Of a stretch of DNA of 64,000 nt, positions 1 through 44,628 are shown piece by piece. Both the position numbers and the translations under genes were made by a program. Every line of letters starts with the position of its first letter. The first letter of the stretch is position 1. The stretch comes from an uncultured Planctomycetales bacterium (GTDB lineage: Bacteria; Omnitrophota; Gorgyraeia; Zapsychrales; JANLHA01): positions 130 through 64,129 of the forward strand of contig CAZAXH010000008.1 of assembly GCA_964489065.1 (NCBI GenBank). The letters run 5' to 3'. The notes beneath the pieces are model-generated. The model ran no database searches. It saw only the letters and a list, made by a program, of their open reading frames with translations, and had not been told where the DNA came from.

Positions 1-35
1 TGCGGTTCATTGAGTCCGGACCTTGCTCTGGGGTT
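1..35 (+). repeat. Partial copy (outer end) of the dispersed ~150-bp structured repeat family R, truncated by the window edge
   Basis: tgcggttcattgagtccggaccttgctctgggg matches the outer end of copies at 16438-16588 (reverse complement) and 19201-19355 (ctgcggttccttgagcccagagcttgttctgggg). Confidence 0.6.
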
Positions 36-51
36 TATACCTTTGATTGGG

Positions 52-1449
52 ATGGAGAATTCCATGAAACTCTTATTAATTTGCCCGCGTTTTAAATATG
101 CCAGCGGCGATGTGCCTTTGGGCTTGGTGAGTCTCGCCACTTTTATCAAAAGCAGCATGCCGGATATTCAGATTACCCTTATCGATGGAGCTGTCCAGCG
201 GGATAAGGCTTCGGTGGGACAGTGGATAAGGGAAGCCCGCCCTCATATTGTGGGGATCTACGCCGATTCCTTGATGTACGATGACGCCATGTGGGTCGGC
301 GGTGTCGCTAAACAATATGGCGCCAATGTCATTATGGGTGGGCCTCACGCCACGGTGCTCCCGGATACCGTCATTTCAAAAAGTTTCATTGACGCTGTTT
401 GTGTGGGAGAGGGAGAACGGGTTCTAGTTGAGTATATCCAGGCTTATCCTGGTTCGCAAAGCTACCGGAACATCCCGGGCCTATGGTATAAAGAAAAGGG
501 GGGAGTTGTCAGGAACGAACGGACCGGCCATTATGAGGATTTGGACCTCCATCCAAGGCTGGATTTCGGATTCGTGAACCTCGAGTGTTATTTAAGAAAT
601 TGCATCCACCTGGATTCTTATAGCCCGAGGTTAAGAGTCCTGTCGGTCATGGCGTCCCGGGGTTGCCTCTATCATTGCGCTTATTGCCAGCCTGTCTTGA
701 GCGAGATATTCGGCCGTAAATTAAGAATCCGTTCCGCCGGAAAAATGATCGATGACCTCCTCGATTGGAGAGACCGCTATCGAATTAACGCGGCCTTTTT
801 TCAGGATGATACTTTAACTTTGTTCCCGGATTGGATGAGAGAATTCTGTGAACTGGCGATCAGGAAAAAACTGGGAATCGTTTGGGCGTGCAACAGCCGG
901 TCCGATACCCTGAATTATAAAATGCTGGATTTATACAGAGAGGCCGGGTGCGTTAAAGTCCGGCTTGGGATAGAAACAGCTTCCGACCGGGTCAGAAACG
1001 GCCTGTATAATAAAAAATTGAACCTGGATGTGATCCAGGAGTCGATCAGCCGGTTGAAAGAAAAAAACATCCAGGCTTCCGGTTATTTTATGATCGGCGC
1101 GCCGACCGAGACCGATGAGGATATACGAAGCACAATCCGTTTTGCCTGCGAATCCCGTCTGGATGAAGCCGTCTTTACGATATGCTCTCCGTTGCCCGGC
1201 ACATATCTTTACGTGAAGGCGGACGGCGCGGGAGAGAGCCATCCCGGGAAATTCGAAGATTTTGATTATTATAAGGCGAAGGCAGGACGGTTCCCTCCTG
1301 CGGACGTTCCGGCGGACCGGTTGAATTATTATAAAAAATTCGCGTATTGTTCATTTTACTGTCATCCTAAAAGGCTGGCCAGAACGATGAAGACGGTGTT
1401 GGCCGGAAACCCGGTTAAAACGATAAATAAATTAAAGGTCTACTTTTAA
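52..1449 (+). CDS. B12-binding domain radical SAM protein (class B rSAM); start uncertain (ATG at 10, 52 or 64)
   Basis: N-terminal Rossmann-like cobalamin-binding region (KLLLICPRF...GLVSLATF) then CxxxCxxC-like radical SAM motif (SRGCLYHCAYCQ); paralog of 49664..50959; stop overlaps next gene start (TAATG). Confidence 0.75.
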   Translation: MENSMKLLLICPRFKYASGDVPLGLVSLATFIKSSMPDIQITLIDGAVQRDKASVGQWIREARPHIVGIYADSLMYDDAMWVGGVAKQYGANVIMGGPHATVLPDTVISKSFIDAVCVGEGERVLVEYIQAYPGSQSYRNIPGLWYKEKGGVVRNERTGHYEDLDLHPRLDFGFVNLECYLRNCIHLDSYSPRLRVLSVMASRGCLYHCAYCQPVLSEIFGRKLRIRSAGKMIDDLLDWRDRYRINAAFFQDDTLTLFPDWMREFCELAIRKKLGIVWACNSRSDTLNYKMLDLYREAGCVKVRLGIETASDRVRNGLYNKKLNLDVIQESISRLKEKNIQASGYFMIGAPTETDEDIRSTIRFACESRLDEAVFTICSPLPGTYLYVKADGAGESHPGKFEDFDYYKAKAGRFPPADVPADRLNYYKKFAYCSFYCHPKRLARTMKTVLAGNPVKTINKLKVYF

Positions 1450-3920
1450 TGATGATGCCATCCTGGGAAATCACCCATCCCGTTTTAATGTTCGCTTTTA
1501 TGATGTTTCTGGTTCTGTTTTCACCGGCTGTTTTTAAACGGATCCGGTTGCCAGGTGTCGTCGGGTTGATTGTGGCCGGGATCATGGCGGGGCCCCATGC
1601 TTTTGGGATTCTGAAATCAACGCAGTCTTTGCAGTTGTTTTCTTCCGTAGGGCTGATTTACATTATGTTTCTTGCCGGGCTGGAAATCAACCTGAACGAA
1701 TTTGCCCGGCAGAGAAAAAGCAGCGTTCTTTTCGGGGCCCTGACGTTTGGCGTTCCTATGCTGGCCGGGACTCTGGGCGCGAAATATTTTTTCCCTCTAT
1801 CCTGGCCCGCGGCCCTGCTTTTGGCCAGCATGTTCGCGTCACACACCCTGATTCCGTTTCCTATCACCGCGCGTTTGGGGATCAACAAGGAACGGTCTGT
1901 GGTGGCTACAGTGGGCGGCACAATCATCACCGACACTGCGGCGATGCTGGTTTTGGCCGTCATTGCGGAAAGCGCGGTAACAAGGTTGACGGCGGTCTTC
2001 TGGACGCGGCAAATTATTTTTCTCCTGGCGCTTATCTGGTTCGCGTTATGGCTCTTGCCAAGGATCGCGTACACGCTTTTTAAGATATTCGCCCCTGATG
2101 GGGAAAGCGAATTCTTGCTCACGCTGGCCCTGGTCTTCCTCACGTCTTATTTCGCGCATCTGGCCGGGGTGGAGGCCATCATCGGGGCTTTTTTCTCCGG
2201 GCTATCCTTAAGCCGGCTGATATCGGACTCCAGCCCCTTGAAGAACCGGCTGGAATTCGTGGGCAACACATTTTTTATCCCGTTTTTTCTCATATCGGTG
2301 GGCATGCTTGTTAATCTGCGGGTCATGTTGTCGGGCTGGGAGGTCTGGGGCATGGCGTTGTTTATGGTTGTTTCCGTGATTGTGTTCAAATATGCGGCGG
2401 CGTTTATTTTCGCAAAAACAGCCCGGTTTACGGATGATGAAATGAACCTGATCTTCGGGCTTAGCGTCAACCAGGCGGCGGCAACCCTGGCGACGGTGAT
2501 TGTCGGCTTCCGCCTTGGGATTTTTAATGAGGCCATTTTGAACGGGACGATTTTTATGATCTTTATCACCTGCTTGGTCGGCCCCTGGTTCACGGAAAAG
2601 TTTGGACGAAAGGTCGCTCGCTCGTTGCATTTAAAGGCCGCCGAACACAAGCCGGAGGGCGGGACCCGGGTCATGGTCGCCGTCAGCCGTGATGAGTCAG
2701 CAGAATTCTTGACGGATGTGGCTTTAAGTCTACGGATGCCAGGGTCAAAAGAAGCGGTTTTCCCTCTATATGTGATTCAGGATGGCCTTGACGTTGACCG
2801 CCGTGTGACCTTGGGCGAGAAGGTGTTAAGCGGGGTTGTCGCCAGGGTTGTGGCTGCCGATGTTCCTGTTTCGCCGGTCACCAGGATCGATGTTAATATC
2901 CCGGGTGGAATTCTGCGGGCGGTTAAGGAGTGCCGCGCGGACGCGCTGGTGCTGGGGGTCAGCCCGTCCAGGGACATAGATTTCATGGCCCGGCTGTTTG
3001 ATGTTTCGGATAAAGTGTGTGATGAGAGTCACCAGCTTCTATTCATATGCCATATGGCCTGCGCTTTAAATATCGGGAAAAATCTTTTTGTCCTTATTCC
3101 GCCGGTCCTGGAGCGCCAGGAGGGGTTCGCTCGCGCACTGGAAACCGTAAAGAATTTGGCTGCCGGCAATAAACTGGGGCTTCGCCTGATCGGTGTGCCG
3201 GACACTGTCCGGTTCCTGCAACAAAGTTTATCGCAGACCTTCACCAGCGGTTGTGAGGTCACTTTCCATGTCCTGGATCAATGGAACGAGCTTCCTGCTA
3301 GTGTCAAAAAAGCAGGATTGCAGGACTCTGATTCTATTTTATTGATGGCGGCAAGAAAAGGACGGCTGGCCTGGCAGCCATCCATGAAACGGCTCGCGCA
3401 TGCTTTGAGCCTGCAATTCCCGGCGAACAATGTCATCCGGGTTTATCCGAAGGACGCCGGCTTAGATGATCATAAAGAGGAGGGTTTAGAAAACGCAGGT
3501 ACCACGGCCCGCGTGTTATTAAGCCGTCCCGCTGTTCCCATTGACAGTATGAACCTGGAGGAAGGGATCCGGCGGCTTTTGGAATCACAGTTCCCGCCGG
3601 GCTCTTTAATCTTGTCGGAAGTTATGGATAAGCTATCTCCGCTCGCTCCGGTGGCGTTGTCGTCCGGTATCCTTCTTTTTCACACGCATTCGGCCTATGT
3701 TACGGAACCTGTCATACTGCTGGGCTGCGGACGGGAGGGGCTGGCTTGTTCTTTTCTGGAGGAGAAAACGCGCGCTTTTTTTATCCTGATCAGCCCCGAG
3801 GCCCAGACCAGTGTCCATCTGCAGGCGTTGACTCAAGTGGCCCGTATGGCGCGTGAGATCGAAAATGAACAATGGAATATGCCCGAAGTATTGACTAAAA
3901 AGGGAAAGGATTCATTATGA
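1449..3920 (+). CDS. Cation/proton antiporter (CPA/Kef-like membrane domain) fused to tandem USP-like domains and a C-terminal PTS EIIA(Ntr/Fru type 2)-like domain
   Basis: ~400-aa polytopic N-terminal domain typical of Na+(K+)/H+ exchangers. The C-terminus (GILLFHTHS ... FFILISPEAQTSVHLQALTQVARMA) aligns with PtsN motifs GIAIPHG and LLFALLVP..THLHTLSLVAKRLA. Confidence 0.7.
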   Translation: MMMPSWEITHPVLMFAFMMFLVLFSPAVFKRIRLPGVVGLIVAGIMAGPHAFGILKSTQSLQLFSSVGLIYIMFLAGLEINLNEFARQRKSSVLFGALTFGVPMLAGTLGAKYFFPLSWPAALLLASMFASHTLIPFPITARLGINKERSVVATVGGTIITDTAAMLVLAVIAESAVTRLTAVFWTRQIIFLLALIWFALWLLPRIAYTLFKIFAPDGESEFLLTLALVFLTSYFAHLAGVEAIIGAFFSGLSLSRLISDSSPLKNRLEFVGNTFFIPFFLISVGMLVNLRVMLSGWEVWGMALFMVVSVIVFKYAAAFIFAKTARFTDDEMNLIFGLSVNQAAATLATVIVGFRLGIFNEAILNGTIFMIFITCLVGPWFTEKFGRKVARSLHLKAAEHKPEGGTRVMVAVSRDESAEFLTDVALSLRMPGSKEAVFPLYVIQDGLDVDRRVTLGEKVLSGVVARVVAADVPVSPVTRIDVNIPGGILRAVKECRADALVLGVSPSRDIDFMARLFDVSDKVCDESHQLLFICHMACALNIGKNLFVLIPPVLERQEGFARALETVKNLAAGNKLGLRLIGVPDTVRFLQQSLSQTFTSGCEVTFHVLDQWNELPASVKKAGLQDSDSILLMAARKGRLAWQPSMKRLAHALSLQFPANNVIRVYPKDAGLDDHKEEGLENAGTTARVLLSRPAVPIDSMNLEEGIRRLLESQFPPGSLILSEVMDKLSPLAPVALSSGILLFHTHSAYVTEPVILLGCGREGLACSFLEEKTRAFFILISPEAQTSVHLQALTQVARMAREIENEQWNMPEVLTKKGKDSL

Positions 3921-3954
3921 ACTTATCAGCAAGTGAAGCGAGCCAGCGGATGAA
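3896..3954 (+). repeat. Direct repeat copy A (~58 bp) flanking the IS200-like insertion; duplicate of the antiporter-stop/moxR-start junction
   Basis: aaaagggaaaggattcattatgaacttatcagcaagtgaagcgagccagcggatgaag is nearly identical (about 5 mismatches, 1 indel) to 4861-4921. Confidence 0.8.
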
Positions 3955-4006
3955 GTGGAAGGGTGAGAGGAAGAAGGTGGAAGTGGAAGGGGACAGTCCC
4001 CCATGA
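3917..4006 (+). pseudogene. 29-codon remnant duplicate of the moxR 5' end (MNLSASEASQRMK...) created by the insertion
   Basis: First 13 codons match the moxR N-terminus MTLSASEASQRMK. The frame then runs through the left-end hairpin of the IS to a TGA at 4004-4006. Confidence 0.7.
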
Positions 4007-4860
4007 GGGACAGGGCATTTTTATGCAGTTGAATAATGTGGAGAAATAGGTATAATATTTACATTCCCCTAATGTTTTCCCCTGGTAAACAGAAAGGGGA
4101 TTTTTTATGCCCAGAATCGCCAGAAGAGAGATATTATATGATGGGTGTTATGCACACATCATATCACGGTCGATCCGTAAAATGAAGCTGTTCAGGGAAA
4201 AAGCAGATTTTCAAGAGTTGTATCAATTATTTGCGGAGACAAAACGGCAGGCTTGTTTTAAAATTTATCATTATTGCTTCATGCATACCCATTTTCATTT
4301 AGCCGTCAGTATCCCCGATATTAAAGAGTTCTCAAACGCACTCCGGGATGTCAAGAGCCAATATAGCCATAAATTTCATGCCAAATATCATTTGAGTGGG
4401 CCTATATGGAATGACCGATACCGAGGTTTATTGATCGAGAATGAGGCTTATTTGCAGGCATGCGGGACATATATTGAAAATAATCCGGTAAAGGCAGGTT
4501 TCGTGAAGAAAGCAAACGATTGGAAATTTAGTTCGTCACGGCATTATCAGGGGGAAGGGCCTGATTTATTGGTTGATAATTATGCTGATTCTGATAATCT
4601 GAGCAGAGCCGTTGAGATTGACTTCGAAGAAGAAGAATTTTTTGAGCACGGACATGTTATAGGGTCTGCTTTTTATCGTTGGCAATTATATGAGAAAAAG
4701 AAGAGAAGTTGACCTGTCCCCCAATGGGGACTGTCCCTTGTAAAAAGCCATTTTGTCATGAATTTTTTGGTTTAACCCGAAAATAGAAGGTAAAATAATG
4801 GAGATTTTTTAAATTAGGCCGTCTTTATTGATTTTCGCGGGATAGGAGGAGAAGGGGCCA
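3955..4860 (+). mobile_element. IS200/IS605-family (Y1 HUH transposase) insertion unit with imperfect palindromic subterminal hairpins; RAYT-like alternative
   Basis: Left-end hairpin GGGGACAGTCCCCCATGAGGGACAGGGC (3989-4016). Right-end hairpin gacctgtcccccaatggggactgtccc (4711-4737) is its near reverse complement. A single tnpA lies between them, and the unit is bounded by the 58-bp direct repeats. Confidence 0.7.
4107..4712 (+). CDS. tnpA: Y1 (HUH) tyrosine transposase, IS200-like / REP-associated tyrosine transposase-like
   Basis: HUH motif HTHFHLAV; catalytic Tyr region PIWNDRYRG ... YIENNPV matching the PF01797 pattern (W-x3-Y ... YIEN); 201 aa. Confidence 0.8.
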   Translation: MPRIARREILYDGCYAHIISRSIRKMKLFREKADFQELYQLFAETKRQACFKIYHYCFMHTHFHLAVSIPDIKEFSNALRDVKSQYSHKFHAKYHLSGPIWNDRYRGLLIENEAYLQACGTYIENNPVKAGFVKKANDWKFSSSRHYQGEGPDLLVDNYADSDNLSRAVEIDFEEEEFFEHGHVIGSAFYRWQLYEKKKRS

Positions 4861-4921
4861 TAAAAAAGGGAAAGGGTTGATTATGACTTTATCGGCAAGT
4901 GAAGCGAGCCAGCGGATGAAA
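4861..4921 (+). repeat. Direct repeat copy B (original junction upstream of intact moxR)
   Basis: See copy A; contains the genuine moxR start ATG at 4883. Confidence 0.8.
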
Positions 4922-9111: not shown

Positions 9112-9166
9112 GGCGTTCAAGCGCCCCTGCTTTAGAAAACAAAAGGGCTAATTCACTTCATCCGCC
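9112..9166 (+). repeat. Solo copy of a ~50-bp repeat unit (caagcgc...ttagaaaacaaaagggctaattcacttcatcc)
   Basis: Direct copy of 9196-9253 and inverted copy of 9424-9480. Confidence 0.7.
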
Positions 9167-9195: not shown

Positions 9196-9480
9196 ACGCC
9201 TGGCCTCAAGCGCTTGTTTTAGAAAACAAAAGGGACTAATTCACTTCATCCACCGGCTTTTCTATTATGGAATACTGATTTTTGGGCCAGTTGACTCATA
9301 AATAAATGTTACCGAAGAAGACGGGGAGAGGGCCCCCTTTCCTGTTGACGGGTATAATACATTTTTATATAATGACTTCGTTTGATTTTTATCGTTTTGA
9401 TATTTTTGAAGATAAGAGGACGCAAGGGGTGCTGGAGTGAATTAGCCCCTTTTGTTTTTTTAATAAGGGCGCTTGAACGA
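9196..9480. mobile_element. MITE-like ~285-bp element bounded by ~45-bp imperfect terminal inverted repeats, carrying the acnA promoter
   Basis: Left TIR agcgcttgttttagaaaacaaaagggactaattcacttcatcca (9205-9251). Right TIR at 9433-9479 is its near reverse complement (ggagtgaattagccccttttgtttttttaataagggcgcttg). AT-rich interior. Confidence 0.55.
9345..9373 (+). promoter_or_regulatory. Strong sigma70-type promoter for acnA (TTGACG-17 bp-TATAAT)
   Basis: TTGACG at 9345-9350, 17-bp spacer, TATAAT at 9368-9373; ~165 nt upstream of the acnA ATG. Confidence 0.6.
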
Positions 9481-9537: not shown

Positions 9538-12219
9538 ATGCCCGCTTCCAATAAAGACACGTTTAAACTGTTAAAGGCCGGACAGAAAAGCGTCGGGATT
9601 TATCACCTGGCCAAACTGTCTAGGTTAGGCTTGCCTGCGCCGGATAAGCTGCCGTATTCCATCAAAGTTCTTCTGGAAAACGCCTTGCGCAACTGGGACG
9701 ATTATCAGGTGCAGTTCGAAGACGTCAAGAAACTGGCGTCCTGGCAGGGGCGTGGTTTGCCGCAGACTGAGATCGCGTTCAAGCCGGGCCGGGTGATCCT
9801 GCAGGATTTCACCGGCGTCCCCTGCGTGGTCGATCTGGCGGCGATGCGTTCCGCCATGAAGCGCCTGGGCGGGGATTACCGGAAAATCAATCCGCAGGTG
9901 CCGTGTGATCTTGTGATCGACCATTCCCTGCAGATCGACGCCTACGGTTCGTCCAAAGCGGCCGCGACGAATGTCCGCCAGGAATTCAGGCGCAACCGCG
10001 AGCGGTATGAATTTTTAAAATGGGGGCAGCGGGTGTTCCGGAATTTCCGGGTGGTGCCTCCCTCGACCGGGATTATTCACCAGGTCAACCTGGAATATCT
10101 CGCGCAGGGGGTGCTGATCAGGAAAGCCGGGAAAGACTCTGTGGCTTATCCGGACAGCCTGGTGGGGACGGACAGCCACACCACGATGATTAACGGGATT
10201 GGGATCGTGGGCTGGGGTGTCGGAGGCATTGAAGCTGAAGCCGTGATGCTGGGGGAGCCGATCTATATGCTGCTGCCGCAAGTGGTGGGCTTTAAACTGA
10301 CCGGCGAGCTGCCTGAAGGCGTGACCGCGACCGACCTAGTTTTGACGATTACCCAGACTTTAAGAAAGAAAGGGGTGGTGGGGAAATTCGTGGAGTTTTT
10401 CGGCCCGAGCCTGAAGACGTTAAGCCTGCCGGACCGGGCGACCGTAGCTAACATGGCGCCGGAGTACGGCGCGACGATGGGTATTTTCCCTATTGACGAA
10501 GAGACTCTTGATTATTACCGGCTTACGGGGCGCAAGCCGGCCCAGGTCGATCTGATTGAACGCTACGCCAAGGAACAGGGGATGTTTTACTCACCCCGGA
10601 CGCCTGTGGCGGATTACACTGAGATTCTGGAACTGGACCTGTCCTCGGTGGAGCCGTCGCTGGCCGGGCCCAAGCGGCCGCAGGACCGGGTTCTGTTAAA
10701 AGACATGCAGTCGTCATTCCGTAATGCTTTACGCGCTCCCCTTAAGGAGCGGGGGTTTGAATTGAAGGAAGACGCTTTACCGGCCCGCGCCGGCGGCATG
10801 GCGCACGGCGCGGTGGTGATCGCTTCGATCACCAGCTGTACCAACACCTCCAACCCGTCGGTGCTGATCGCGGCCGGGCTGCTGGCGAAGAAAGCCGTGG
10901 AACGGGGCTTAAGTGTGCCCGCGTATGTCAAGACAAGCCTGGCGCCGGGGTCATTGGTGGTGGAGGAATATCTGTCCGCTTCGGGTTTGCTGGCGTATCT
11001 GGAAAAGCTGCGGTTTCATATTGTCGGCTACGGGTGCGCGACGTGCATCGGCAACAGCGGGCCTCTGGCGCCGGGGATCGCCGACACGATTCAGGAACAC
11101 GACCTTGTCGCGGCCGCGGTCTTGAGCGGGAACCGGAATTTCGAGGGGCGGATTAATCCGCACACAAAAGCGAACTACCTCGCCAGCCCGCCGCTGGTCG
11201 TGGCCTACAGCCTGGCCGGGACCGTGGAAATTGATTTTATGACCCAGCCGGTCGGGCTGGATAAAGACGGGAAACCGGTGTTCCTGTCCGACCTCTGGCC
11301 GTCGCAGGAGGAAGTGCGGGGCGTGCTGCGGAAAACGGTCACGGCAAAGGCTTACGCGAAACGGTATAAAAATGTGTTCAGCGGCAACCAGGACTGGGAG
11401 AAGATTAAGGCGACGGAGAGCGACCTGTTCCGCTGGAAAGCCAAAAGTACGTATATCCAGGAACCGCCGTTTTTTATCGATATGACCCGTGAACCCGGCA
11501 CGATCCGGCCGGTCAGCGGAGCCAGGGTTCTGGTCAAGGTGGGGGATTCCATCACCACCGACCACATTTCCCCGGCGGGCGCGATCGCCCCGGACAGCGC
11601 GGCCGGTTCTTATCTGCGTTCGCTGGGGGTTGAGCCGCGTCAGTTTAACAGCTACGGGTCCCGCCGGGGGAATGACCGGGTTATGGTGCGGGGCACATTC
11701 GCCAATATCCGTTTGCGCAATCAGCTGGCGCCCGGCACCGAAGGGGCCTGGACCGTTCATTTCCCTTCGGGAGAAAAGATGACGATCTACGACGCCGCCC
11801 GGAAATATCAGGAGAGCCGGACGCCGCTTCTTGTCCTGGCGGGAAAAGAATACGGGACCGGGTCCAGCCGGGACTGGGCGGCCAAGGGCACGGCGCTGCT
11901 GGGCGTCAAAATCGTGCTGGCGCAGAGCTTTGAAAGGATTCACCGCAGCAATCTCGCGGGGATGGGGCTTCTGCCGCTCGAGTTTTTAGCGGGCGAATCC
12001 GCCGACACGCTGGGCCTGACCGGAGAAGAGATTTTCGAAGTGCCGGATCTGAATGAGGGCTTAAGGCCCCAGCAGGTCCTTAAGGTCCGGGCGCTTAAGG
12101 CGGACGGGAGCGTTAAGGAATTTTCCGGCCTCTGCCGCCTGGACACGCCGGTTGAGATCGATTATTACCGCAACGGCGGAGTGCTGCAGACCGTGTTGAG
12201 AAAACTGCTCGCCGGGTGA
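9538..12219 (+). CDS. acnA: Aconitate hydratase A
   Basis: 893 aa; aconitase motifs SCTNTSNP and GNRNFEGRI; cluster-ligand cysteines in CATCIGNSG. Confidence 0.93.
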
Positions 12220-16432: not shown

Positions 16433-16437
16433 ATCTA

Positions 16438-16588
16438 AAAACAAGCTCTGGACTCAATGAACCGCAGCAGGCCGCGGGGTATGAAATCACCATCCTTCGG
16501 CTCGTTCGCTTTAGCTCTCTCGCTGAAGGATCAATTCGCATTTCTAGTTTACACTCTCTGTGGTCGTGTAAACTAAATGCTCATTGAA
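16438..16588 (-). repeat. Copy R2 of dispersed ~150-bp structured repeat; its terminal hairpin plus a downstream T-tract forms a terminator-like structure after the SDR gene
   Basis: Near-identical reverse complement of 19201-19355. Contains stem GCATTTCTAGTTTACAC...GTGTAAACTAAATGC followed by ttttttattttt. Confidence 0.8.
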
Positions 16589-16592
16589 TTTT

Positions 16593-18938: not shown

Positions 18939-19110
18939 GTGAATTCCTTTCCTTAAAGGTGTTTCTATTTGTCCGTTTTCAGGTTTTTCAAAAAAACAGG
19001 CTGAACCCCGGCCCGCTTAACCTGATACGGAAAGCAATATTATTATACACAAAGTTGTGTTTATGACCATGCAGAATCATGTATTGTGCGGCACCCTTTT
19101 TATAATATGC

Positions 19111-19138
19111 TTGACAGAAGAAAGGAGGCCCTTATAAT
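19111..19138 (+). promoter_or_regulatory. sigma70-like promoter (TTGACA-16 bp-TATAAT) driving a short leader/sRNA-like transcript
   Basis: TTGACA at 19111-19116, TATAAT at 19133-19138. Confidence 0.5.
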
Positions 19139-19156
19139 TATAAAAATTATAAAAAG

Positions 19157-19202
19157 GACGGGGAACAGACATAAAGCCCGTCCGGTGCGGGCTTGTTTTT
19201 TT
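19157..19202 (+). terminator. Rho-independent terminator-like hairpin with alternative upstream stem (attenuator-like) about 20 nt after the promoter
   Basis: GGACGGG(n12)CCCGTCC overlaps GCCCG-TCCGGTG-CGGGC followed by TTGTTTTTTT; the two stems are mutually exclusive. Confidence 0.5.
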
Positions 19203-19355: not shown

Positions 19356-19389
19356 TTGGTGTCTTTTATTAAACGGGGTGAAATAAATC

Positions 19390-26708: not shown

Positions 26709-26731
26709 TTTTTATTTGAGAGGAGGTCTTT

Positions 26732-27457: not shown

Positions 27458-29235
27458 TCCTGCAATCGTTATACGAGTATTATCAGAGAAACAAAGGAAG
27501 ATTACCGCCCAAGGGTTTTCAGATTCAGGATATAAAATTTGTCATTGAAATAGACGAGGATGGACGGTTTTTAAATCTGGTTGATAAACGTGAAGGCAAA
27601 AAGGGAAAGCCGTATCTGTTGCCAAAGGCAAAGACCAGATCTGGTTCCAACTCTTACCAGACGACGTTTCTTTTATGGGATCATCACGGTTATCTGTTGG
27701 CTCATCCCAAGGAAGAATCTCCCAAGGCTGTCGAGATGGCTCAGAAACAGAAGACTACTTTTATCGCAGCTCTAGGAAGTCTCCCCGATACACTAAAGAC
27801 CGATAAAGGTGTCGCGGCTGTATTAAAGTTTTATGAGAAAGATGAATGGAAGAAAGTCAAAGAGCAGCCAGCTTGGCCTGACTGTGCCCGGCTGGCAGGT
27901 TGTAATATGACGTTTCAATTGGCAGGCGATGATTGTCTTGTTCCTGAACGGGCAGCTGTCAGGTTTTATCAGTCTTCAATCTCCGATGAAGACAGCCCTG
28001 AAGATGCAGAGGATAAGGGTAAAAGCATGTCTGGGATATGTTTGATAACCGGCAAAAAGGACTTTGTAAAGAGACTTCACTCGCCGACCCCTGTCTTGGG
28101 TTCCCGGCCGAACGCTAAGATACCCGGTTTTCAGAAGAATTCAGGATTTGATTCCTATGGTAAGGAGCAGGCATTCAATGCCCCTGTTTCTTCGGACGCG
28201 GAGGCCGCGTATACTACGGCGCTTAAATATCTAATCTCGTCGGAAAGTAATAAAGTCATAATCAGCGATACAACGATCGTCTTCTGGGCTCAGAAGACGC
28301 TTGAGGCGTTTGACCTTGAATCGAATTTTGTCTGGTTTTTCAAATCGGACAAGGATGACACTGAGAGAGGTGTTAACGCAGTCAAGGCCCTGTTTAATGC
28401 TGTTGAGAGCGGGCGTCTGCCGGTGGACGAGGATAACAGGTTTTTTGTCCTGGGACTCGCGCCGAACGCGGCGCGTATTTCTGTCAGATTCTGGAAGGCA
28501 GGGACGATTAAAGAATTTGCTGAAAAAATATATCAGCATTTTATTGATTTTGAAATTACGCGTCCTGTTCAGGATAAATACGAATATTTATCGCTGTACC
28601 AAATCCTCGGCGCGACAGTGTTGGATTACAAAATGGACAATGTCCCGCCGAATCTTGCCGGAGCGGTTGTCAGCAGTATTCTGGATGGTACGCCGTATCC
28701 GCGCACACTCTTGCATCAATGCATGCGTCGCATTCGTGCGGAACAGTCAAAGAAAGATTCGCGCACTGGTAAGTCGATTCAGAATGTCAATCGAATACGA
28801 GCATCAATTCTTAAAGCTTGTCTTAATCGGTTTAATCGAATTCATAACCCTCAAACCAAGGAGGTTCTCGTGTCTCTAGATAGAACAAACACCGACACAG
28901 GATACCGTGTGGGGCGGCTGTTCGCGGTTTTGGAAAAAATTCAGGAGGAGGCCAATCCCGGTATCAACACAACCATCCGCGACCGATTTTATGGTGCTGC
29001 TTCGTCAACACCAGTTACGGTTTTTCCCAGGCTTTTAGGACTTAAGAATCATCATCTGCCTAAATTGTCGCTGGGTCGCAAGGTGAATATGGAAAGAGAG
29101 ATTCAGGATATTATCGGTGAGATTAAAAGTTTCCCATCGCATCTGACCCTTGACCAGCAGGCCATGTTCGCGATTGGTTATTACCATCAGCGGCAGGCCT
29201 TTTTTGTGTCTAAAAAGGATTTGAATAACGAATAA
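27454..29235 (+). CDS. cas8c: Cas8c (Csd1) large subunit, type I-C
   Basis: 593 aa between cas5c and cas7c with overlapping start; family-typical size and position. Confidence 0.85.
   Translation: MILQSLYEYYQRNKGRLPPKGFQIQDIKFVIEIDEDGRFLNLVDKREGKKGKPYLLPKAKTRSGSNSYQTTFLLWDHHGYLLAHPKEESPKAVEMAQKQKTTFIAALGSLPDTLKTDKGVAAVLKFYEKDEWKKVKEQPAWPDCARLAGCNMTFQLAGDDCLVPERAAVRFYQSSISDEDSPEDAEDKGKSMSGICLITGKKDFVKRLHSPTPVLGSRPNAKIPGFQKNSGFDSYGKEQAFNAPVSSDAEAAYTTALKYLISSESNKVIISDTTIVFWAQKTLEAFDLESNFVWFFKSDKDDTERGVNAVKALFNAVESGRLPVDEDNRFFVLGLAPNAARISVRFWKAGTIKEFAEKIYQHFIDFEITRPVQDKYEYLSLYQILGATVLDYKMDNVPPNLAGAVVSSILDGTPYPRTLLHQCMRRIRAEQSKKDSRTGKSIQNVNRIRASILKACLNRFNRIHNPQTKEVLVSLDRTNTDTGYRVGRLFAVLEKIQEEANPGINTTIRDRFYGAASSTPVTVFPRLLGLKNHHLPKLSLGRKVNMEREIQDIIGEIKSFPSHLTLDQQAMFAIGYYHQRQAFFVSKKDLNNE
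28870..29235 (+). CDS. cas11c: Putative internally translated Cas11c small subunit (in-frame within the cas8c 3' end)
   Basis: In-frame GTG at 28870 preceded by a perfect RBS AAGGAGG (28858-28864, 5-nt spacer); predicted product 121 aa, the expected size of Cas11c produced by internal initiation in I-C cas8c genes. Confidence 0.45.
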   Translation: MSLDRTNTDTGYRVGRLFAVLEKIQEEANPGINTTIRDRFYGAASSTPVTVFPRLLGLKNHHLPKLSLGRKVNMEREIQDIIGEIKSFPSHLTLDQQAMFAIGYYHQRQAFFVSKKDLNNE

Positions 29236-29267
29236 TAACTTTATCATTCAGGGAGGAGATAGGTACC

Positions 29268-30185
29268 ATGACAACACCACTCACAAACCGTTACGACTTT
29301 GTTTTGTTTTTTGACGTACAGGACGGAAACCCCAACGGCGACCCCGATGCCGGTAACCTGCCGCGCATTGACGCGGAGACCGGCATGGGGTTGGTAACGG
29401 ATGTCTGCATTAAGCGAAAGGTGCGGAATTATGTGCAGATAGTCAAAGAAGGAAATGTCCCCTTTGATATTTTTGTGAAATCCAAAGAATTTTCCGGTCT
29501 AGAAACCGTTTTAAATAAGTTGATTCGAGATGGGTATCAAGAGATAGGCATTGATTTGGAGGCTGACAAGACAAAAGACGGAGAAAAAAGAAAAAGTAAA
29601 GGTGGAGCTCAAGGGGAAGAGGTCAACGAAGGCCGTCGGCACATGTGTTCGAAGTTTTTTGATATTCGTACTTTTGGAGCTGTTATGAGCACTGGTCCTA
29701 ACGCTGGACAAGTACGAGGGCCTGTTCAAATAACCTTTGCGAGATCTATTGAGCCTTTAGTTAGTTTGGAGCATGCGTTAACTGTTTGCGCTGCAAGGTC
29801 GGAAGATAAGAGCTACGAAGAGCAAGTTGGAATACAAGGTCGAAAATACACCGTTCCTTATGGCCTTTATCGCGTTCATGGTTTTGTGTCTGCTCATCTG
29901 GCAGCCCAGACAGGGTTTTCCAAGGAAGATTTAAATTTGTTCTGGGAGGCTTTGCAGAAAATGTTTGATCACGATCATTCCGCGGCCCGCGGCCTTATGA
30001 CAACACGGGCGCTTATAGTTTTTGAACATGGTACTGCTTTGGGCACAGCGAGTGCGGCATCTCTCTTTGACCGGGTGGAAGCCAAACGTGTTACTGAAGG
30101 CCCGGCCAGGAAGTTTAGCGATTACCAAATTTTGCTGGATAACCAGCCTGTCGTTGAATTACCAAAAATTGTCCGGGTGGGATAA
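29268..30185 (+). CDS. cas7c: Cas7c (Csd2) backbone subunit, type I-C
   Basis: N-terminus RYDFVLFFDVQDGNPNGDPDAGNLPRID is the Csd2/Cas7 signature. Confidence 0.9.
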   Translation: MTTPLTNRYDFVLFFDVQDGNPNGDPDAGNLPRIDAETGMGLVTDVCIKRKVRNYVQIVKEGNVPFDIFVKSKEFSGLETVLNKLIRDGYQEIGIDLEADKTKDGEKRKSKGGAQGEEVNEGRRHMCSKFFDIRTFGAVMSTGPNAGQVRGPVQITFARSIEPLVSLEHALTVCAARSEDKSYEEQVGIQGRKYTVPYGLYRVHGFVSAHLAAQTGFSKEDLNLFWEALQKMFDHDHSAARGLMTTRALIVFEHGTALGTASAASLFDRVEAKRVTEGPARKFSDYQILLDNQPVVELPKIVRVG

Positions 30186-30189
30186 TTTT

Positions 30190-30822
30190 ATGTTCTCCGA
30201 AGACAATCTTATTCAGCTTTCGGCTTTACAGCATTTTGTGTATTGCCCCCGGCAGTGCGCGCTGATCCACATCGAGCAGGTGTGGGTGGAAAATATGTTC
30301 ACGGCCGAAGGCAGGATCATGCATGATAAAGTGCATGAAGAGAGAGTGGAATACCGGGAAGGCGTCAAAATAGAGCGCGGCATGTTTCTTCGCTCGTTGG
30401 AGCTGGGCCTCATTGGTAAAGCAGATGTGGTGGAGTTTCATAGCGCTGCCGGCGGGGCTTGGCTTCCTTTTCCGGTAGAGTATAAAAGGGGAAAGCCCAA
30501 AAAAGACTCTTGCGACATGGTCCAGTTGTGCGCCCAGGCTTTCTGCCTGGAAGAGATGCTTAACGTAAAAATAGGAAAAGGCGCCTTGTATTATGGCCGC
30601 ACGCGGCATCGGCATGAAGTTGTTTTCGATGACGATTTGAGGGCCGTTACCCGTAACGCCGCATCCCAGGTGCGGGCGTTTCTTGAAAAGGGAGAAACGC
30701 CGTTCCCGGAATACTCGCCCAAGTGCAAGGCCTGCTCTATGCTTGCGGTATGCTTGCCGAAAGTCATGGGCCGGCATCAGTCTGTAACCTGTTACCTGGA
30801 GGAGCAACTGAAAGACCCGTGA
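30190..30822 (+). CDS. cas4: Cas4 RecB-like exonuclease with C-terminal Fe-S cysteines
   Basis: LQHFVYCPRQCALIHIE nuclease start, and a C-terminal Cx2C cluster (KCKACSMLAVC); follows cas7c by a 4-bp gap. Confidence 0.88.
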   Translation: MFSEDNLIQLSALQHFVYCPRQCALIHIEQVWVENMFTAEGRIMHDKVHEERVEYREGVKIERGMFLRSLELGLIGKADVVEFHSAAGGAWLPFPVEYKRGKPKKDSCDMVQLCAQAFCLEEMLNVKIGKGALYYGRTRHRHEVVFDDDLRAVTRNAASQVRAFLEKGETPFPEYSPKCKACSMLAVCLPKVMGRHQSVTCYLEEQLKDP

Positions 30823-31850
30823 AGAAATATTTAAATACTTTATATGTCACCACTCAAGGGGCCTATCTGTCGAAAGAGGGTGAAACGGTGGTTGTGAAGG
30901 TGGAAGAAGAAAAGCGCCTGCAAATCCCTGTCCATACCCTCGACGGAATCGTGTGTTTCGGGCAGGTGGGAATGAGCCCGTTTTTGATGGGGCATTGCGC
31001 CGAGAACAACGTGGCCGTTACTTTTTTAACCGAGTATGGCCGGTTTTTGGCAAGCCTGCGAGGGAAGGTTTGCGGTAATGTGCTGCTTCGGCGCCAGCAG
31101 TACCGCAAAGCGGACGATCCTGCCTTTTCGGCAGAGGTCGCGCGCAGCATTGTCCGGGGCAAGATCGCTAATGCCCGGGCTGTATTGCAGCGAAGATTGA
31201 GGGACCATCCCGAGAAAAATAATACTCCCGATGTCAAACAGGCCTCGGGGCGGTTGAGTTGTTCTCTGGATAAACTGACCCGGCCGCTTGACCTAGATAT
31301 GATCCGGGGCATAGAAGGCGAATGCGCGCACACGTATTTCAGTGTTTTTAATGATCTGATCGTCGCGCAAAAAAATGACTTTATTTTTGAGGAGCGTAAC
31401 CGCCGGCCGCCGCTGGACCGGGTGAATTGTCTTTTGTCTTTTATTTATACTTTGGTTATGCATGATGTGCGTTCCGCGCTCGAAACTGTAGGGCTTGATC
31501 CTGCCGTCGGGTTTTTGCATCGCGACCGGCCCGGCCGGCCTGGGTTGGCTTTGGATATGTTGGAAGAATTCCGGCCGTTTATGGCGGACAGGTTGGTCTT
31601 GTCTTTGATTAACCGGGAACAGGTGCAGGCCAAGGGCTTCATGCAGTCGGAATCGCGTGCCGTCACAATGGATGATGAGACCCGAAAAAGCATTCTTGTG
31701 GCCTATCAGAAAAGGAAGCAGGAAGAAATAACGCATCCCTATTTGCAGGAAACCGTGCCGGTAGGGCTTTTGTTTTATATCCAGGCATTGCTCATGGCAC
31801 GTTTTCTCCGGGAAGACATAGACGGCTATCCTGTATTTATCTGGAAATAA
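30819..31850 (+). CDS. cas1: Cas1 integrase
   Basis: GTG start overlapping cas4 stop; LNTLYVTTQGAYLSKEGETVVVK N-terminus and conserved Cas1 core. Confidence 0.9.
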   Translation: MKKYLNTLYVTTQGAYLSKEGETVVVKVEEEKRLQIPVHTLDGIVCFGQVGMSPFLMGHCAENNVAVTFLTEYGRFLASLRGKVCGNVLLRRQQYRKADDPAFSAEVARSIVRGKIANARAVLQRRLRDHPEKNNTPDVKQASGRLSCSLDKLTRPLDLDMIRGIEGECAHTYFSVFNDLIVAQKNDFIFEERNRRPPLDRVNCLLSFIYTLVMHDVRSALETVGLDPAVGFLHRDRPGRPGLALDMLEEFRPFMADRLVLSLINREQVQAKGFMQSESRAVTMDDETRKSILVAYQKRKQEEITHPYLQETVPVGLLFYIQALLMARFLREDIDGYPVFIWK

Positions 31851-31861
31851 GAAGGTGTCCC

Positions 31862-32152
31862 ATGCTGGTGTTGATCAGTTATGATGTAAAAATGGACGAC
31901 AGCGGTGGACCCCGGCGGTTACGCCGGGTGGCAAAGGCCTGCAAAAATTTTGGCCAGCGGGTGCAGTATTCTGTCTTTGAATGTAACGTAGATCCGGCCC
32001 AATGGGCCAAACTGCGCCAGCAACTGATTGATGAAATCGATTTGAAAAAAGACAGCCTCCGGTTTTATTTTTTAGGCTCCAACTGGAGACGGCGGGTTGA
32101 GCACATGGGGGCCAAGGAACCTGTTGACCTGGAAGGGCCGCTTGTCGCGTAG
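31862..32152 (+). CDS. cas2: Cas2
   Basis: MLVLISYDV...RVQYSVFEC classic Cas2; 96 aa. Confidence 0.92.
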   Translation: MLVLISYDVKMDDSGGPRRLRRVAKACKNFGQRVQYSVFECNVDPAQWAKLRQQLIDEIDLKKDSLRFYFLGSNWRRRVEHMGAKEPVDLEGPLVA

Positions 32153-32339
32153 TAATCTGCCGTGCGAACCATGAGAGCGTGTGCTGTATGCGGGACGTTC
32201 GCAGGGGAGACATGTTCTTTGACAACAATAATTTATTTCAATCCGATATATAATTTGTTTGTTTGATCGCAGCAAATCCGCCAAGGTTCGCGGAAATAGA
32301 AGTTTTAGTTATTGGTGTTGTAACAGATAGAAGAAGACA
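32153..32339 (+). promoter_or_regulatory. CRISPR leader (AT-rich) between cas2 and the first repeat
   Basis: AT-rich 187 bp (ttgacaacaataatttatttcaatccgatatataatttg...) immediately upstream of repeat 1; the degenerate repeat is at the distal end of the array. Confidence 0.7.
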
Positions 32340-33763
32340 GTCGCGCCCTTCGCGGGCGCGTGGATTGAAACTTTGCCGTTCAGAATAAAAAACGAGGTCG
32401 GGAAAGGTCGCGCCCTTCGCGGGCGCGTGGATTGAAACACGGGCAATCTGGAGATTTTGTGCATTTGTTTGGTCGCGCCCTTCGCGGGCGCGTGGATTGA
32501 AACAGGGGTAGCGCGCGCGGATGGTAAAGATGGTAAAGGTCGCGCCCTTCGCGGGCGCGTGGATTGAAACCTTGGAGGACGCTTGTCCATTATAACTGAT
32601 ACTGGTCGCGCCCTTCGCGGGCGCGTGGATTGAAACTTGTCCGCTCGGATGTGCGGATTTTGCGCAAGCTGTCGCGCCCTTCGCGGGCGCGTGGATTGAA
32701 ACTATCTATAAAAAGGAGGTAAAAAATGGGTCATATGTCGCGCCCTTCGCGGGCGCGTGGATTGAAACCTAATATCGCAACACTTTCGCCGGCGGAAAAA
32801 CTGTCGCGCCCTTCGCGGGCGCGTGGATTGAAACTTAAAAAAAGAGGTGAGGCCGATGAAGAAATAAGTCGCGCCCTTCGCGGGCGCGTGGATTGAAACA
32901 ACTTCATGGTCGTCGTCGATGTTGAGCGGAGACTGTCGCGCCCTTCGCGGGCGCGTGGATTGAAACTGGCGAACAACCTTATGGTTGTTCTGGTGGAGGC
33001 GTCGCGCCCTTCGCGGGCGCGTGGATTGAAACCAGCGCCGAGCGTGTTGCTCCGACCTGACGATGTCGCGCCCTTCGCGGGCGCGTGGATTGAAACACAG
33101 CGCGATCGCAGGCATGGGATAATTCATCGTGTCGCGCCCTTCGCGGGCGCGTGGATTGAAACGGCGAGTATGAAATACTCGTCAAAGCAGAAATCAAAGT
33201 CGCGCCCTTCGCGGGCGCGTGGATTGAAACGTAACAGACTTCGGTTTGCTATTGTTGGTTAGAGGGTCGCGCCCTTCGCGGGCGCGTGGATTGAAACTCA
33301 TCAGGAGTATCGCGCGCGGATGGTAAAGATGGTCGCGCCCTTCGCGGGCGCGTGGATTGAAACCGTCGCCCGGCGATTGTGTATCTCCTCACGCACGGTC
33401 GCGCCCTTCGCGGGCGCGTGGATTGAAACGACGCCGACACAAAAACTAAAAAATTAAACATTAAGTCGCGCCCTTCGCGGGCGCGTGGATTGAAACTTTA
33501 ATGCGTTTCAATTCTTTGTGCAGCCCCATGTCGCGCCCTTCGCGGGCGCGTGGATTGAAACCTGCACATGATTAAGAGCCAAAGCAACGCCCTGAGCGTC
33601 GCGCCCTTCGCGGGCGCGTGGATTGAAACTATCAAGGGTGTGTACTAGCTTGTCCTGGTGTGTCAGTCGCGCCCTTCGCGGGCGCGTGGATTGAAACGTC
33701 TATGGCTGGTAGGCTAGGCTGCCTAGGTACTGTCGCGCCCTTCGCGGGCGCGTGGTGATAACA
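32340..33763 (+). CRISPR. Type I-C CRISPR array: 22 repeats (21 intact plus 1 degenerate terminal), 21 spacers of 32-36 bp
   Basis: Repeat GTCGCGCCCTTCGCGGGCGCGTGGATTGAAAC (32 bp) with ~66-67 bp period. First repeat at 32340; terminal repeat at 33732 is degenerate (…GCGTGGTGATAACA). Confidence 0.97.
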
Positions 33764-42747: not shown

Positions 42748-44475
42748 TTATGTGCTGCCGGTTGGCTTCTCGAGTTTTGATTTCGGGGGTTCGATAATCA
42801 TATGATATGCTGATTTCCCCGCCGGGACCATGGGGAAGACGTTGTCTTCCTTGACGACTTCGCAATGCACCAGGGCCGGACCGTGGTGTTTAAGGGCCGC
42901 TTTCAGCACGCTTTCCGCTTCTTCAACTTTCCCGATGTGGTATCCTTTGACCTGGTAGGCCTCCGCCAGTTTGACAAAGTCGGGATTCCCCTCCAGATTC
43001 ACCCCGGAGAGGCGGTTGTCAAAAAACAGCTCCTGCCATTGCCGGACCATGCCGAGATATTTGTTGTCAATAATGATAATTTTCACCGGGAGTTTATGGA
43101 CGAACGCCGTGGCCAGTTCATAAAGCGTCATTTGAAAACCGCCGTCCCCGACAATGGCGACCACCAGTTCTTTGGGCCGCCCGAACTGGGCGCCGATGGC
43201 GGCCGGGAACCCGTAGCCCATTGTCCCGGCCCCGCCGGATGAGAGCCATTGGTCGCTCCGGTCGCAGCGATAAAATTGCGCGGCCCACATCTGATGCTGG
43301 CCGACATCCGTCACCACCGTGGCTGTCCCTTTGGTCAATCGGTAAACCGTATCAATGACATATTGAGCTGTCAGGCCGGCGTTGATGTCATAATGGAGCG
43401 GGAATTCATTTTTGTAATATTCCACTTCCTTGAGCCACTCGGCCGTGTCCAGTTTATCCACGTATTTGATCAGTTCTTTTAAAATAAGACGGGCGTCCCC
43501 GATCAAGGCGCTGTCCGGCTTAATCACTTTCCCGATTTCAGCCGGATCAATATCGATGTGCAGCTTTTTGGCGCCGATGCAGAATTCTTCAGTGTTTCCG
43601 TTGATCCGGTCGTCAAACCGCGACCCGATGGAACAAATAAGGTCGCAGTTGATAAGCGCTTTGTTGGAATACGCCGTGCCGTGCATCCCGATCATCCCGA
43701 GGGAAAGAGCGTGGGTTTCCGGGAAGGCCCCTTTCCCCAAGAGGGTGCAGATCACCGGGGCCTGGAGTTTTTCTGCCAGGGCCCGCACTTCCTGATCCGC
43801 TTTGGCAATGACGGCTCCGTGCCCCACCAGCAGGAGCGGCCGTTTAGCGCCTTTAAACATCCTGGCCATGGTTTTGATGCCTTTGATATTGACTTTGGCG
43901 GCGACGGAGTATCCGGGCAAGTCCATGGGAGGATTGATTGTTTGGGCCGTAAACGGGGCGGAGGAAATATCTTTGGGCAGATCAATCAAGACCGGGCCGG
44001 GCCGGTTGGTGTTCGCGATAAAAAACGCTTCTTTGATGATCCGCGGGATATCATTTGCGTCATGAACCAGATAGCTGTGCTTGACGACCGGCATAGTGAT
44101 GCCGACGATATCCGCTTCCTGGAACGCGTCTTTCCCCAGCATGGCCCGGATCGTCTGTCCCGTCAGGACAATGACCGGGACAGAATCCATCATGGCGGTC
44201 ATAATGCCGGTCACAGCGTTGGTGGCTCCGGGGCCGCTGGTTACGCAAACGACGCCGGGCCTTCCGGTCACGCGAGCGTAACCGTCGGCCATATGCACCG
44301 CCGCTTGTTCGTGCCGCACCAGGATCAGTTTAATTTTAGAGTTGACCAACGCGTCAAAAATGGGGATAACGGCGCCGCCGGAAAGCCCAAAAATATATTC
44401 AACCCCTTGTGCTTCCAGACATTTGATCAGAACCTCTGCGCCATTCAGCTGTTCTTTGGTGGTTTTCTGGGCCAT
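42748..44475 (-). CDS. ilvB: Acetolactate synthase large subunit
   Basis: 575 aa ThDP enzyme; motifs [11 protein letters not shown], and ThDP-binding GDGGFQM ... N. Confidence 0.92.
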
Positions 44476-44530
44476 AGAATCCTCGATTATTAATAAAATT
44501 ATTAAACCAACATCCTGCGGCTCGTTCGCT

Positions 44531-44628
44531 TGGACTCACTCGCGCAGGATCAATTCGCATTTTTAGTTTACACTCCCTTGGGTCGTGTAAACTAAATGTT
44601 CATTGAATAAAACGGGTTTCATCTTAGC
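44531..44628 (-). repeat. Copy R4 (inner ~100 bp) of the dispersed structured repeat, upstream of ilvB
   Basis: acatcctgcggctcgttcgcttggactcactcgcgcaggatcaattcgcatttttagtttacactcccttgggtcgtgtaaactaaatgttcattgaa aligns with the inner two-thirds of R2. Confidence 0.8.

Follow-up and report, generated by a model that had tools for sequence, protein, structure and literature searches.

A modular, structured interspersed repeat at intergenic sites of one Candidatus Omnitrophota lineage

Four copies of a small structured repeat (c1, c16k, c19k and c44k; Table 1) lie in the window analyzed here, a stretch of 64,000 nt from an uncultured member of the Omnitrophota (GenBank assembly GCA_964489065.1, contig CAZAXH010000008.1, positions 130 to 64,129 of the forward strand). 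The initial annotation had listed them at 1-35, 16438-16588, 19201-19355 and 44531-44628; all four sites were recovered, the boundaries having been slightly short or shifted. Repeat detection paired 16419-16588 with 19201-19370 (170 nt, 85% complementary), 19195-19262 with 44546-44613 (91%) and 1-48 with 16419-16466 (81%). With a profile of the copies, nhmmer returned 19192-19375 (+, E = 3e-63), 16594-16414 (-, E = 5e-62), 44617-44496 (-, E = 9e-40) and 1-49 (+, E = 2e-10), and no fifth copy was found in the 64-kb window. All four copies are intergenic, as had been stated, and three of the four stand directly upstream of a start codon on the same strand, which had gone unnoticed. A B12-binding radical-SAM gene has its GGAG/ATG (64) 15 nt past the 3' end of c1, the tail of c19k ends TTTTATT at 19370 ahead of the FIST-gene ATG at 19390, and c44k lies between dus and ilvB, upstream of the ilvB ATG (44475, minus strand; ilvB-ilvN) by 25 nt. 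The fourth, c16k, is found where two stops converge, that of an SDR gene (16432) and that of a gene for a 560-aa PMT_2-like membrane protein (16593), and the SDR stop and last codons fall within its 3' end. The 560-aa protein itself (16593-18275, -) had no Pfam or NCBIfam match; a weak PMT_2 glycosyltransferase match was seen in a homologue 60% identical to it.

Table 1. Coordinates of the repeat copies, their parts and the adjacent transcription signals in the window. P1 to P4 are predicted helices.
Feature	Position	Strand	Description
c1	1-48	+	3' module positions 19-64 (last 46 nt), cut by window edge; P3 3' half, UUCAUUGAG, P4 hairpin, tail ending ...CCTTTGATT
c16k	16419-16592	-	Complete single-unit element between convergent stops
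c16k, P1	16588-16531	-	
c16k, P2	16531-16492	-	
c16k, 3' module	16482-16421	-	
Host sigma70-type promoter	19111-19138	+	TTGACA-16-TATAAT, 12/12; would transcribe c19k in sense
Terminator-like hairpin + T7	19174-19200	+	Abuts c19k 5' junction; host/flank sequence, not repeat
c19k	19197-19370	+	Complete single-unit element, leader of FIST-thiC operon
c19k, P1	19201-19258	+	
c19k, P2	19258-19297	+	
c19k, P3	19312-19327	+	
c19k, P4	19337-19355	+	
c44k	44500-44613	-	5' arm and one unit, without 3' module

The repeat was described at first as a unit of ~150 bp. Its existence was borne out, but not as a single unit, the modular architecture having been overlooked. An element consists of a 5' arm (TTTATTCAATGAGCATTTAGTT) and 1-9 units of 89-91 nt arranged head to tail, to which a 64-nt 3' module (AATACCCCGCAGCTTGCTGCGGTTCATTGAGTCCAGAGCTTGCTCTGGGGTTTATACCTTTGATT, ending ...CTCTGGGGTTTATACCTTTGATT) may be added. 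The c44k copy, with its 5' arm and one unit, is not only the inner part that it had been taken for. Among the 51 distinct loci of the inventory given below, one unit was present at 28, two at 10, three at 5, four at 3, five at 3, seven at 1 and nine at 1. The unit period varied among arrays (89, 90 and 91 nt); the repeats are therefore not coding, and a coding tandem repeat (90 nt = 30 codons) was ruled out. Units abut directly, without spacers, so the arrays are not of CRISPR type. The element begins TTTATTCAATGAG and ends CCTTTGATT. Sequence conservation stops at the 5' junction, (T)TTTAT/T, and the flanks upstream are not conserved; the 3' terminus reads TT(G/T/A)AT/T. Terminal inverted repeats (TIRs) at both ends were not found, the sole inverted match (TTCAATGAG/TTCATTGAG) lying ~35 nt inside the 3' end, and no target-site duplication (TSD) was found per copy, the 3' flanks being unrelated to the conserved 5' junction (T)TTTATT. 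Elements also occur head to tail, joined at ...CCTTTTATT/CAATGAG..., and some 3' modules stand alone. At one locus (L022, 2630-2757, -) ~125 nt lie between the unit and its 3' module, an insert with three other small GC-rich hairpins (CCACGGCTTTTAGCCGTGG is one of them) that may be another, nested small repeat. At another (L010, 6210-6290) a seven-unit array starts 8 nt past the 3' end of a tRNA gene, right after its T-run.

Loci were collected by an exact-pattern scan with the conserved core, using one genome per species (GTDB), and with a looser two-block pattern on metagenome contigs. The first scan gave 23 loci, all in two Candidatus Omnitrophota metagenome-assembled genomes (MAGs), and the second 54 loci, 8 of them chance matches. 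Most of the metagenome contigs (ENA UPTA01, Ga0116141, Ga0209604) were 100% identical to the JAGOJP MAG, so the added loci represent the same population and not new lineages. De-duplication reduced 158 units in 84 arrays to the 51 distinct loci. The core scans of genomes and metagenomes matched only contigs labelled Omnitrophota or unlabelled contigs from sludge. Outside the window, its strain was found only as fragmented Logan contigs that start or end inside the repeat, which shows that the repeat breaks assemblies. The full c1 was not recovered, the Logan contig for that end beginning at window position 382. No match to the element was obtained in plasmid and phage collections, or in Rfam at gathering or permissive thresholds (a scan proposed in the initial annotation), and no earlier description of a small interspersed repeat in Omnitrophota turned up in the literature. 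The element is a lineage-specific, non-coding, modular repeat at at least ~50 intergenic sites of one Candidatus Omnitrophota lineage. It was previously undescribed, and its best place is among the small interspersed structured repeats of bacteria, as a new member.

Copies are dispersed insertions, absent at the orthologous sites of more distant relatives. The gene order SDR / membrane protein / MBL hydrolase / FIST / thiC is retained in two of them (contigs L080 and L081; 560-aa protein ~60% identical), where only 3 nt separate the convergent stops versus 160 nt, including c16k, in the window, and no element module was found in either (2 x 21.7 kb). An intermediate relative (P0003) was uninformative, as its contig ends inside the gene. 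A composite transposon bounded by the inverted copies c16k and c19k was rejected, because the 2.6-kb interior, which encodes the polytopic PMT_2-like membrane protein and an MBL-fold hydrolase, keeps the gene order of element-free relatives. Once in place, arrays expand or contract locally by duplication or loss of units, in the manner of a variable-number tandem repeat (VNTR). Three contigs (L005, L046 and L037) are syntenic with 36.4-54.0 kb of the window at 91-94% identity (L005 is 94% identical to 38.1-44.6 kb) and have five units in the ilvB leader versus one in the window. Unit identity was 94.3% within arrays versus 79.3% between arrays (p = 2e-17), and array-specific variants were present; arrays therefore grew in place. 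Arrays of 2-4 units were identical in two independent assemblies.

The long imperfect hairpin and the second stem reported at first are both present in the element. Folding of the consensus gave a minimum free energy (MFE) of -66.5 kcal/mol for the sense strand (z = -6.3) and -57.0 kcal/mol for the antisense strand (z = -5.0); for the drifted c19k copy alone, z was only -1.6. Near the 5' end of the element, P1 is predicted as a long hairpin (UCAAU/AUUGA, a G-A/G-A internal loop, GCAUUU/AAAUGC, an AG bulge and AGUUUACAC/GUGUAAACU) with G·A, A·G and CC/GG at its tip closing a loop of 3-4 nt. The predicted P2 comprises AUCCUUC/GAAGGAU, then GC, tandem G·A, GU/AC, tandem G·A, GC and a variable loop. 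P3 would be formed by CCGCAG/CUGCGG and P4, 17 nt from the 3' end, by CCAGAG/CUCUGG followed by a U-rich tail. An alternative closing helix, P0, in which UUCAAUGAG at the 5' end would pair with UUCAUUGAG of the 3' module, was used by the consensus MFE structure. RNAalifold independently returned upper P1 and extended P2. Across the 15 complete elements ~91% of cells pair, versus 34-43% with the partner columns slid, and 4-5 pairs were changed on both sides (covariation score above 499-500 of 500 shuffles). Double changes include G-C to A-U in P1, U-A to G-C in P2 and, in two sequences, A-U to C-G in P0. Conservation of the four non-canonical G·A positions in P2 ran to 56-61 of 61 unique units, and in L001 Watson-Crick pairs replace the G·A pairs at the P1 tip. 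The covariation is supportive of the predicted fold and not conclusive, since the structure was derived from the same, closely related sequences.

A transition at a paired site yields either G·U, tolerated in RNA of the same strand, or A·C, equivalent to G·U in the opposite strand. For non-consensus pairs, G·U to A·C stood at 23:22 over all helices of the 15 elements and at 9:14 in P2 of the 61 unique units. There is no strand signature in these counts, and individual copies therefore appear to decay neutrally. Compensatory conservation of the stems, whose absence the initial annotation had named as refuting, was found in part, some double changes being present. Where two haplotypes of one locus could be compared (L012 and L013), the element differed about as much as its 89.5%-identical flanks. 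Conservation was uneven along the unit. Blocks ATTGATCCT, GAGTGTAAA, GCGAACGAG and AGGAT are nearly invariant, also in internal units that lack the pairing 5' arm, and in six by-catch units that match neither search pattern the same blocks were still the most conserved and the G·A positions stayed conserved too. At L047 (973-1080) the two arms of hairpin 1 are exactly reverse-complementary, without the usual AG bulge and G-A/G-A loop, which suggests hairpin-templated correction at the DNA level.

Orientation was scored at the 51 loci with the longest open reading frame (ORF) as gene proxy. The downstream gene was on the same strand as the element in 36 cases and on the opposite strand in 8 (p = 3e-5), and between co-directional genes the element was sense in 23 and antisense in 3 (p = 9e-5). 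The window copies alternate (+, -, +, -) along with the local genes, so that orientation tracks transcription and not the replication arm. Distance to the downstream start had a median of 74 nt, with 17 loci at 2-53 nt and many copies 13-45 nt upstream. In ten copies the 3' module is next to the ribosome-binding site, 2-45 nt before the start codon, and hence it cannot be an efficient terminator. The downstream genes were functionally unrelated (radical-SAM, FIST/thiC, ilvB, leuB-like, response regulators and others). The T-rich junction motif was 1.5-1.7x commoner on the sense strand of element-free intergenic DNA. Such an asymmetry of target motifs is insufficient as the source of the 23:3 bias (p = 0.0016); to explain it, either antisense copies must be selected against or insertion must be coupled to transcription. 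A hairpin with T-run, as in a terminator, was also rejected as the insertion target (upstream 45-mers -7.3 kcal/mol versus control -7.2 kcal/mol).

Promoters of this lineage are of the TTGACA/TATAAT type. No sigma70-like promoter or canonical terminator was called by the scanner inside the arrays on either strand. An outward promoter in the 3' module was rejected, there being no sigma70-like site and only a TAnnTTTG match (TACCTTTG) without the upstream TTTG. A promoter for c44k chosen by eye (TTGCAT-17-TAAGAT) failed the scanner, which flagged TCGACA-17-CATAAT at 44846-44818 instead. The promoter upstream of c19k is conserved in L080 and L081, where it drives ahpC-FIST-thiC. The ahpC/peroxiredoxin gene lies between the MBL hydrolase and FIST genes in L080 (8541-9340) and L081 (8482-9283) and is missing in the window (18939-19389), where the terminator-like hairpin and the element stand in the place of the lost gene. 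Within 19111-19200 a terminator (AAGCCCG...CGGGCUU + U7) follows the promoter by ~35 nt or less, ahead of FIST-thiC. Its 5' strand is predicted to pair alternatively with an upstream GGACGGG, in an attenuator-like layout; no Rfam match to a thiamine pyrophosphate (TPP) riboswitch was obtained ahead of FIST-thiC. In L011 (2150-2730) promoter, hairpin, element and gene are arranged similarly. Spurious antisense ORFs run through arrays in L005 (359-1030, -), L010 (6306-6986, -) and the window (19263-19526, -); they mimic a multi-copy protein family in all-versus-all BLASTP and may be annotated by gene callers.

Several explanations other than an interspersed repeat were weighed against these data. 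An assembly artefact of low-coverage metagenome bins, behind the family or its arrays, would fit the breaks of contigs at arrays and the one array that differs between assemblies (4 vs 3 units). The same loci are, however, 100% identical in independent assemblies (GenBank MAG, ENA UPTA01, JGI, Logan contigs), arrays of two to four units agree between assemblies, and copies have unique flanks and arrays their own unit variants, so that an artefact can be dismissed for practical purposes. A REP-like terminator or insulator that ends upstream transcripts would account for the many copies just behind gene ends, and at c16k TTTTTTATTTTT comes after the antisense P1 on the + strand, ~150 nt past the SDR stop. 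That T-run belongs to the flank, however, other copies having the 5' flank TTTATT (antisense AAUAAA); no terminator-like site was called inside any element on either strand; and most copies sit in co-transcribed or promoter-gene pairs, in which termination would silence essential genes, e.g. ilvB. The earlier proposal that the 16.4-kb copy ends the SDR transcripts may hold at most for c16k, whose antisense hairpin abuts the T-run, although the scanner found no terminator there. As a role of the family, termination is very unlikely. Independent small-RNA genes, such as a CsrB/Rsm-type sponge with GGA motifs (AAGGGAG, GAAGGAU), seem scarcely credible. Each unit has two GGA motifs and units are tandem, the 3' module ends in a hairpin and U-rich tail, and some copies lie just downstream of strong host promoters. 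Yet conservation ends at the 5' junction, so no promoter is conserved with the element; no internal sigma70-like site and no terminator at the 3' end were called; the ten 3' modules that adjoin ribosome-binding sites speak against efficient termination; and Rfam gave no match to CsrB/Rsm families. A CsrA sponge (AAGGGAG, GAAGGAUG) was rejected in particular because both motifs are predicted to lie inside helices (P1 tip and P2 3' strand), with the adjacent G·A pairs turned into Watson-Crick pairs in L001.

The same orientation and conservation data bear on a role in the RNA itself. The elements could be functional cis-acting modules of leaders and spacers (a stabiliser, RNase-processing site, translational modulator or protein dock), and the number of units would then adjust expression of the gene downstream. 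The sense bias beyond target-motif asymmetry, the many copies that finish shortly ahead of a start codon, a sense fold ~9.5 kcal/mol better than the antisense one, blocks and tandem G·A motifs conserved in internal units even without a pairing partner, and some compensatory changes are all in keeping with this, as is the analogy with BOX, whose modules alter expression of downstream genes (PMC3049150). On the other hand, the downstream genes share no function, the mismatch spectrum is neutral, orthologous copies (L012/L013) diverge about like their flanks, sites are empty in relatives that retain the same operons, one copy lies between convergent genes, and identity between copies is far above that usual for independently evolving regulatory RNAs. 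We consider such a role unlikely, and keep it in view because the orientation bias and block conservation are unexplained. A riboswitch or dedicated leader RNA was rejected on the unrelated downstream genes, the lack of an Rfam match, the 79-94% identity of copies and the neutral mismatch spectrum; with flanks and gene functions unconserved and no excess of G·U over A·C, the small structured RNA family offered as an option in the initial annotation is not upheld. An improbable further reading is a transcription-coupled single-strand mobile element whose sense RNA or DNA is the specific ligand of a host or element-encoded protein. In one version a RAYT/HUH enzyme or an RNA-guided TnpB-like nuclease could use the last unit and the 3' module as a scaffold for reading the flank, and the recognition site could consist of the conserved tandem G·A pairs together with the AUUGAUCCU block, which is invariant. 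If true, this would explain the 23:3 bias, the position before ribosome-binding sites and the conserved blocks without a partner, and changes of unit number in leaders such as that of ilvB would be a heritable expression rheostat.

The family is probably a BOX/MIRU-like interspersed repeat without function for each copy. On this reading a selfish, non-autonomous repeat of BOX/MIRU/REPIN type would ride in mRNA leaders and intercistronic spacers, its hairpins may incidentally change mRNA stability or translation, and antisense insertions would be removed by selection or never made. The initial suggestion of a MITE (miniature inverted-repeat transposable element) holds in spirit, the family being small, non-coding, multi-copy (51 loci), strongly base-paired, dispersed and lineage-specific, with presence/absence polymorphism, empty sites, unit-number variation and neutral decay; it fails under the strict definition, as TIRs and TSDs are lacking. 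The copies matched no terminal sequence of a known insertion sequence (IS), a match that the initial annotation had named as refuting. As a working hypothesis, the most likely mode of spread is single-strand transposition of HUH/Y1 type (IS200/IS605, PATE or REPIN type) or, alternatively, recombination at a short shared T-rich core. Both are favoured because TIRs and TSDs are absent, the hairpins are subterminal, the motifs of the two ends resemble each other and head-to-tail junctions occur. The motif shared by the 5' junction (TTTAT/T), the 3' end (TTGAT/T) and the head-to-tail junction is consistent with PATEs and not specific to them.

The window holds a candidate enzyme, a Y1 transposase gene at 4107-4712 (Pfam Y1_Tnp) whose best NCBIfam model is the REP-associated tyrosine transposase (RAYT; 75.9 bits versus a cut-off of 80). 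It is flanked by inverted repeats of GGGACAGTCCCC type (3990-4017 and 4710-4737), a hairpin that was not dispersed in the sampled DNA. A MoxR-type AAA gene has the RAYT cassette, ~0.9 kb, at its 5' end, and a 58-nt direct duplication (3897-3954 / 4863-4920) of the ribosome-binding site and first codons of that gene gives rise to a 29-aa stub ORF.

Several points weigh against a selfish BOX/MIRU-like repeat. The window RAYT was rejected as the cognate transposase, its flanking hairpin being different and its flanks sharing nothing above chance with the element. The ~680 kb around the copies yielded no autonomous partner, tblastn with approximate IS608 TnpA and ISDra2 TnpB queries giving no match. 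A purely selfish model leaves unexplained both the sense bias with the position just upstream of ribosome-binding sites and, together with a purely neutral one, the uneven conservation of blocks; these features leave room for a role at the level of RNA or in protein binding. The conservation is partly a matter of ascertainment: exact patterns taken from the conserved core served to find the loci, and estimates of conservation are biased to that extent. The empty sites come only from relatives at ~60% protein identity, so that insertion boundaries and any duplication are unreadable. Unit counts of long arrays derive from short-read assemblies at 4-8x coverage, in which arrays often break contigs and one array has discordant counts.

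Among known families, BOX of Streptococcus pneumoniae and S. suis is the closest analogue by architecture. BOX consists of boxA, a variable number of tandem boxB and boxC; boxB folds independently and the ends pair (PMC3049150). Module number differs between strains, and BOX has effects on co-transcribed genes (PMC3049150). Shared with BOX are unique 5' and 3' modules around variable tandem internal modules, an intergenic location, dozens to over a hundred copies, ends that can pair (here P0), an internal module that folds alone, variation in module number and co-transcription with neighbours. No relationship in sequence to BOX is to be expected. The host phylum differs, as does the unit (~90 nt here, 45 nt for boxB), and BOX TIRs resemble those of ISSpn2, whereas the inverted repeat found here is short, imperfect and subterminal at the 3' end. 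Pneumococcal repeats are over-represented between convergent genes (tabulated in PMC3049150); the Omnitrophota family is unlike them in its mostly co-directional or leader positions and strong sense bias. MIRUs (mycobacterial interspersed repetitive units) are dispersed tandem units in polycistronic mRNAs with strain-variable number and empty sites in related species (PMC3184786). The present family resembles MIRU-VNTR loci in having tandem units of 40-100 bp and ~40-50 dispersed intergenic loci inside transcription units, as well as in strain-dependent unit number and in sites that are empty in relatives. It differs in its non-coding periods, MIRUs carrying small ORFs that overlap the flanking genes and 4-nt direct repeats, and in its distinct 5' and 3' end modules. 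With REP/REPIN-RAYT systems and PATEs it shares a hairpin basis, the lack of TIRs and TSDs, and strand-specific insertion or retention. The element has a conserved short 5'-junction motif that resembles its own 3' end, and a RAYT-like gene is present in the window. Unlike REPs, the element is much longer and has tandem units, and its orientation follows transcription and not one replication direction; unlike in REPIN-RAYT systems, the RAYT of the window is flanked by the non-dispersed GGGACAGTCCCC hairpin and not by the dispersed repeat. ERIC and Correia (NEMIS) elements are structured intergenic repeats transcribed into mRNAs, in which orientation affects processing and stability (summarised in PMC3049150). 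They are likewise intergenic and structured (~125-155 bp), but have clear TIRs (Correia with TA duplications) and no tandem internal units, and share no sequence similarity with the present element.

Other features of the window include a type I-C CRISPR-Cas locus (24411-33763), with cas3, cas5d, csd1, cas7 and further genes at 24411-32152 and an array of 22 repeats (GTCGCGCCCTTCGCGGGCGCGTGGATTGAAAC) at 32340-33763, in which spacers 32503-32534 and 33302-33333 are nearly identical. A 628-aa protein adjoining cas3 (22428-24314, -) had no Pfam or NCBIfam match. The aconitase gene (9538-12219) has a second repeat set close upstream (9114-9160, 9218-9254 and 9433-9479; inverted and direct, 31-47 nt, 79-87% match; CGTTCAAGCGCCCCTGCTTTAGAAAACAAAAGGGCTAATTCACTTCA).

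Descriptions of small interspersed repeats come mainly from cultured Proteobacteria, Firmicutes, Actinobacteria and cyanobacteria. The family of this Omnitrophota lineage has practical consequences, as it breaks short-read assemblies, creates spurious ORFs for gene callers and alters gene ends, the SDR stop codon lying inside c16k. It also offers strain markers of VNTR type for a lineage common in sludge digesters. The sense bias, combined with variation from one to five units in the leader of the essential ilvB gene, makes it a usable natural test case, which could show how much structured cargo is tolerated in the 5' untranslated region of bacterial mRNAs and whether repeats of this kind become domesticated as modulators of expression.

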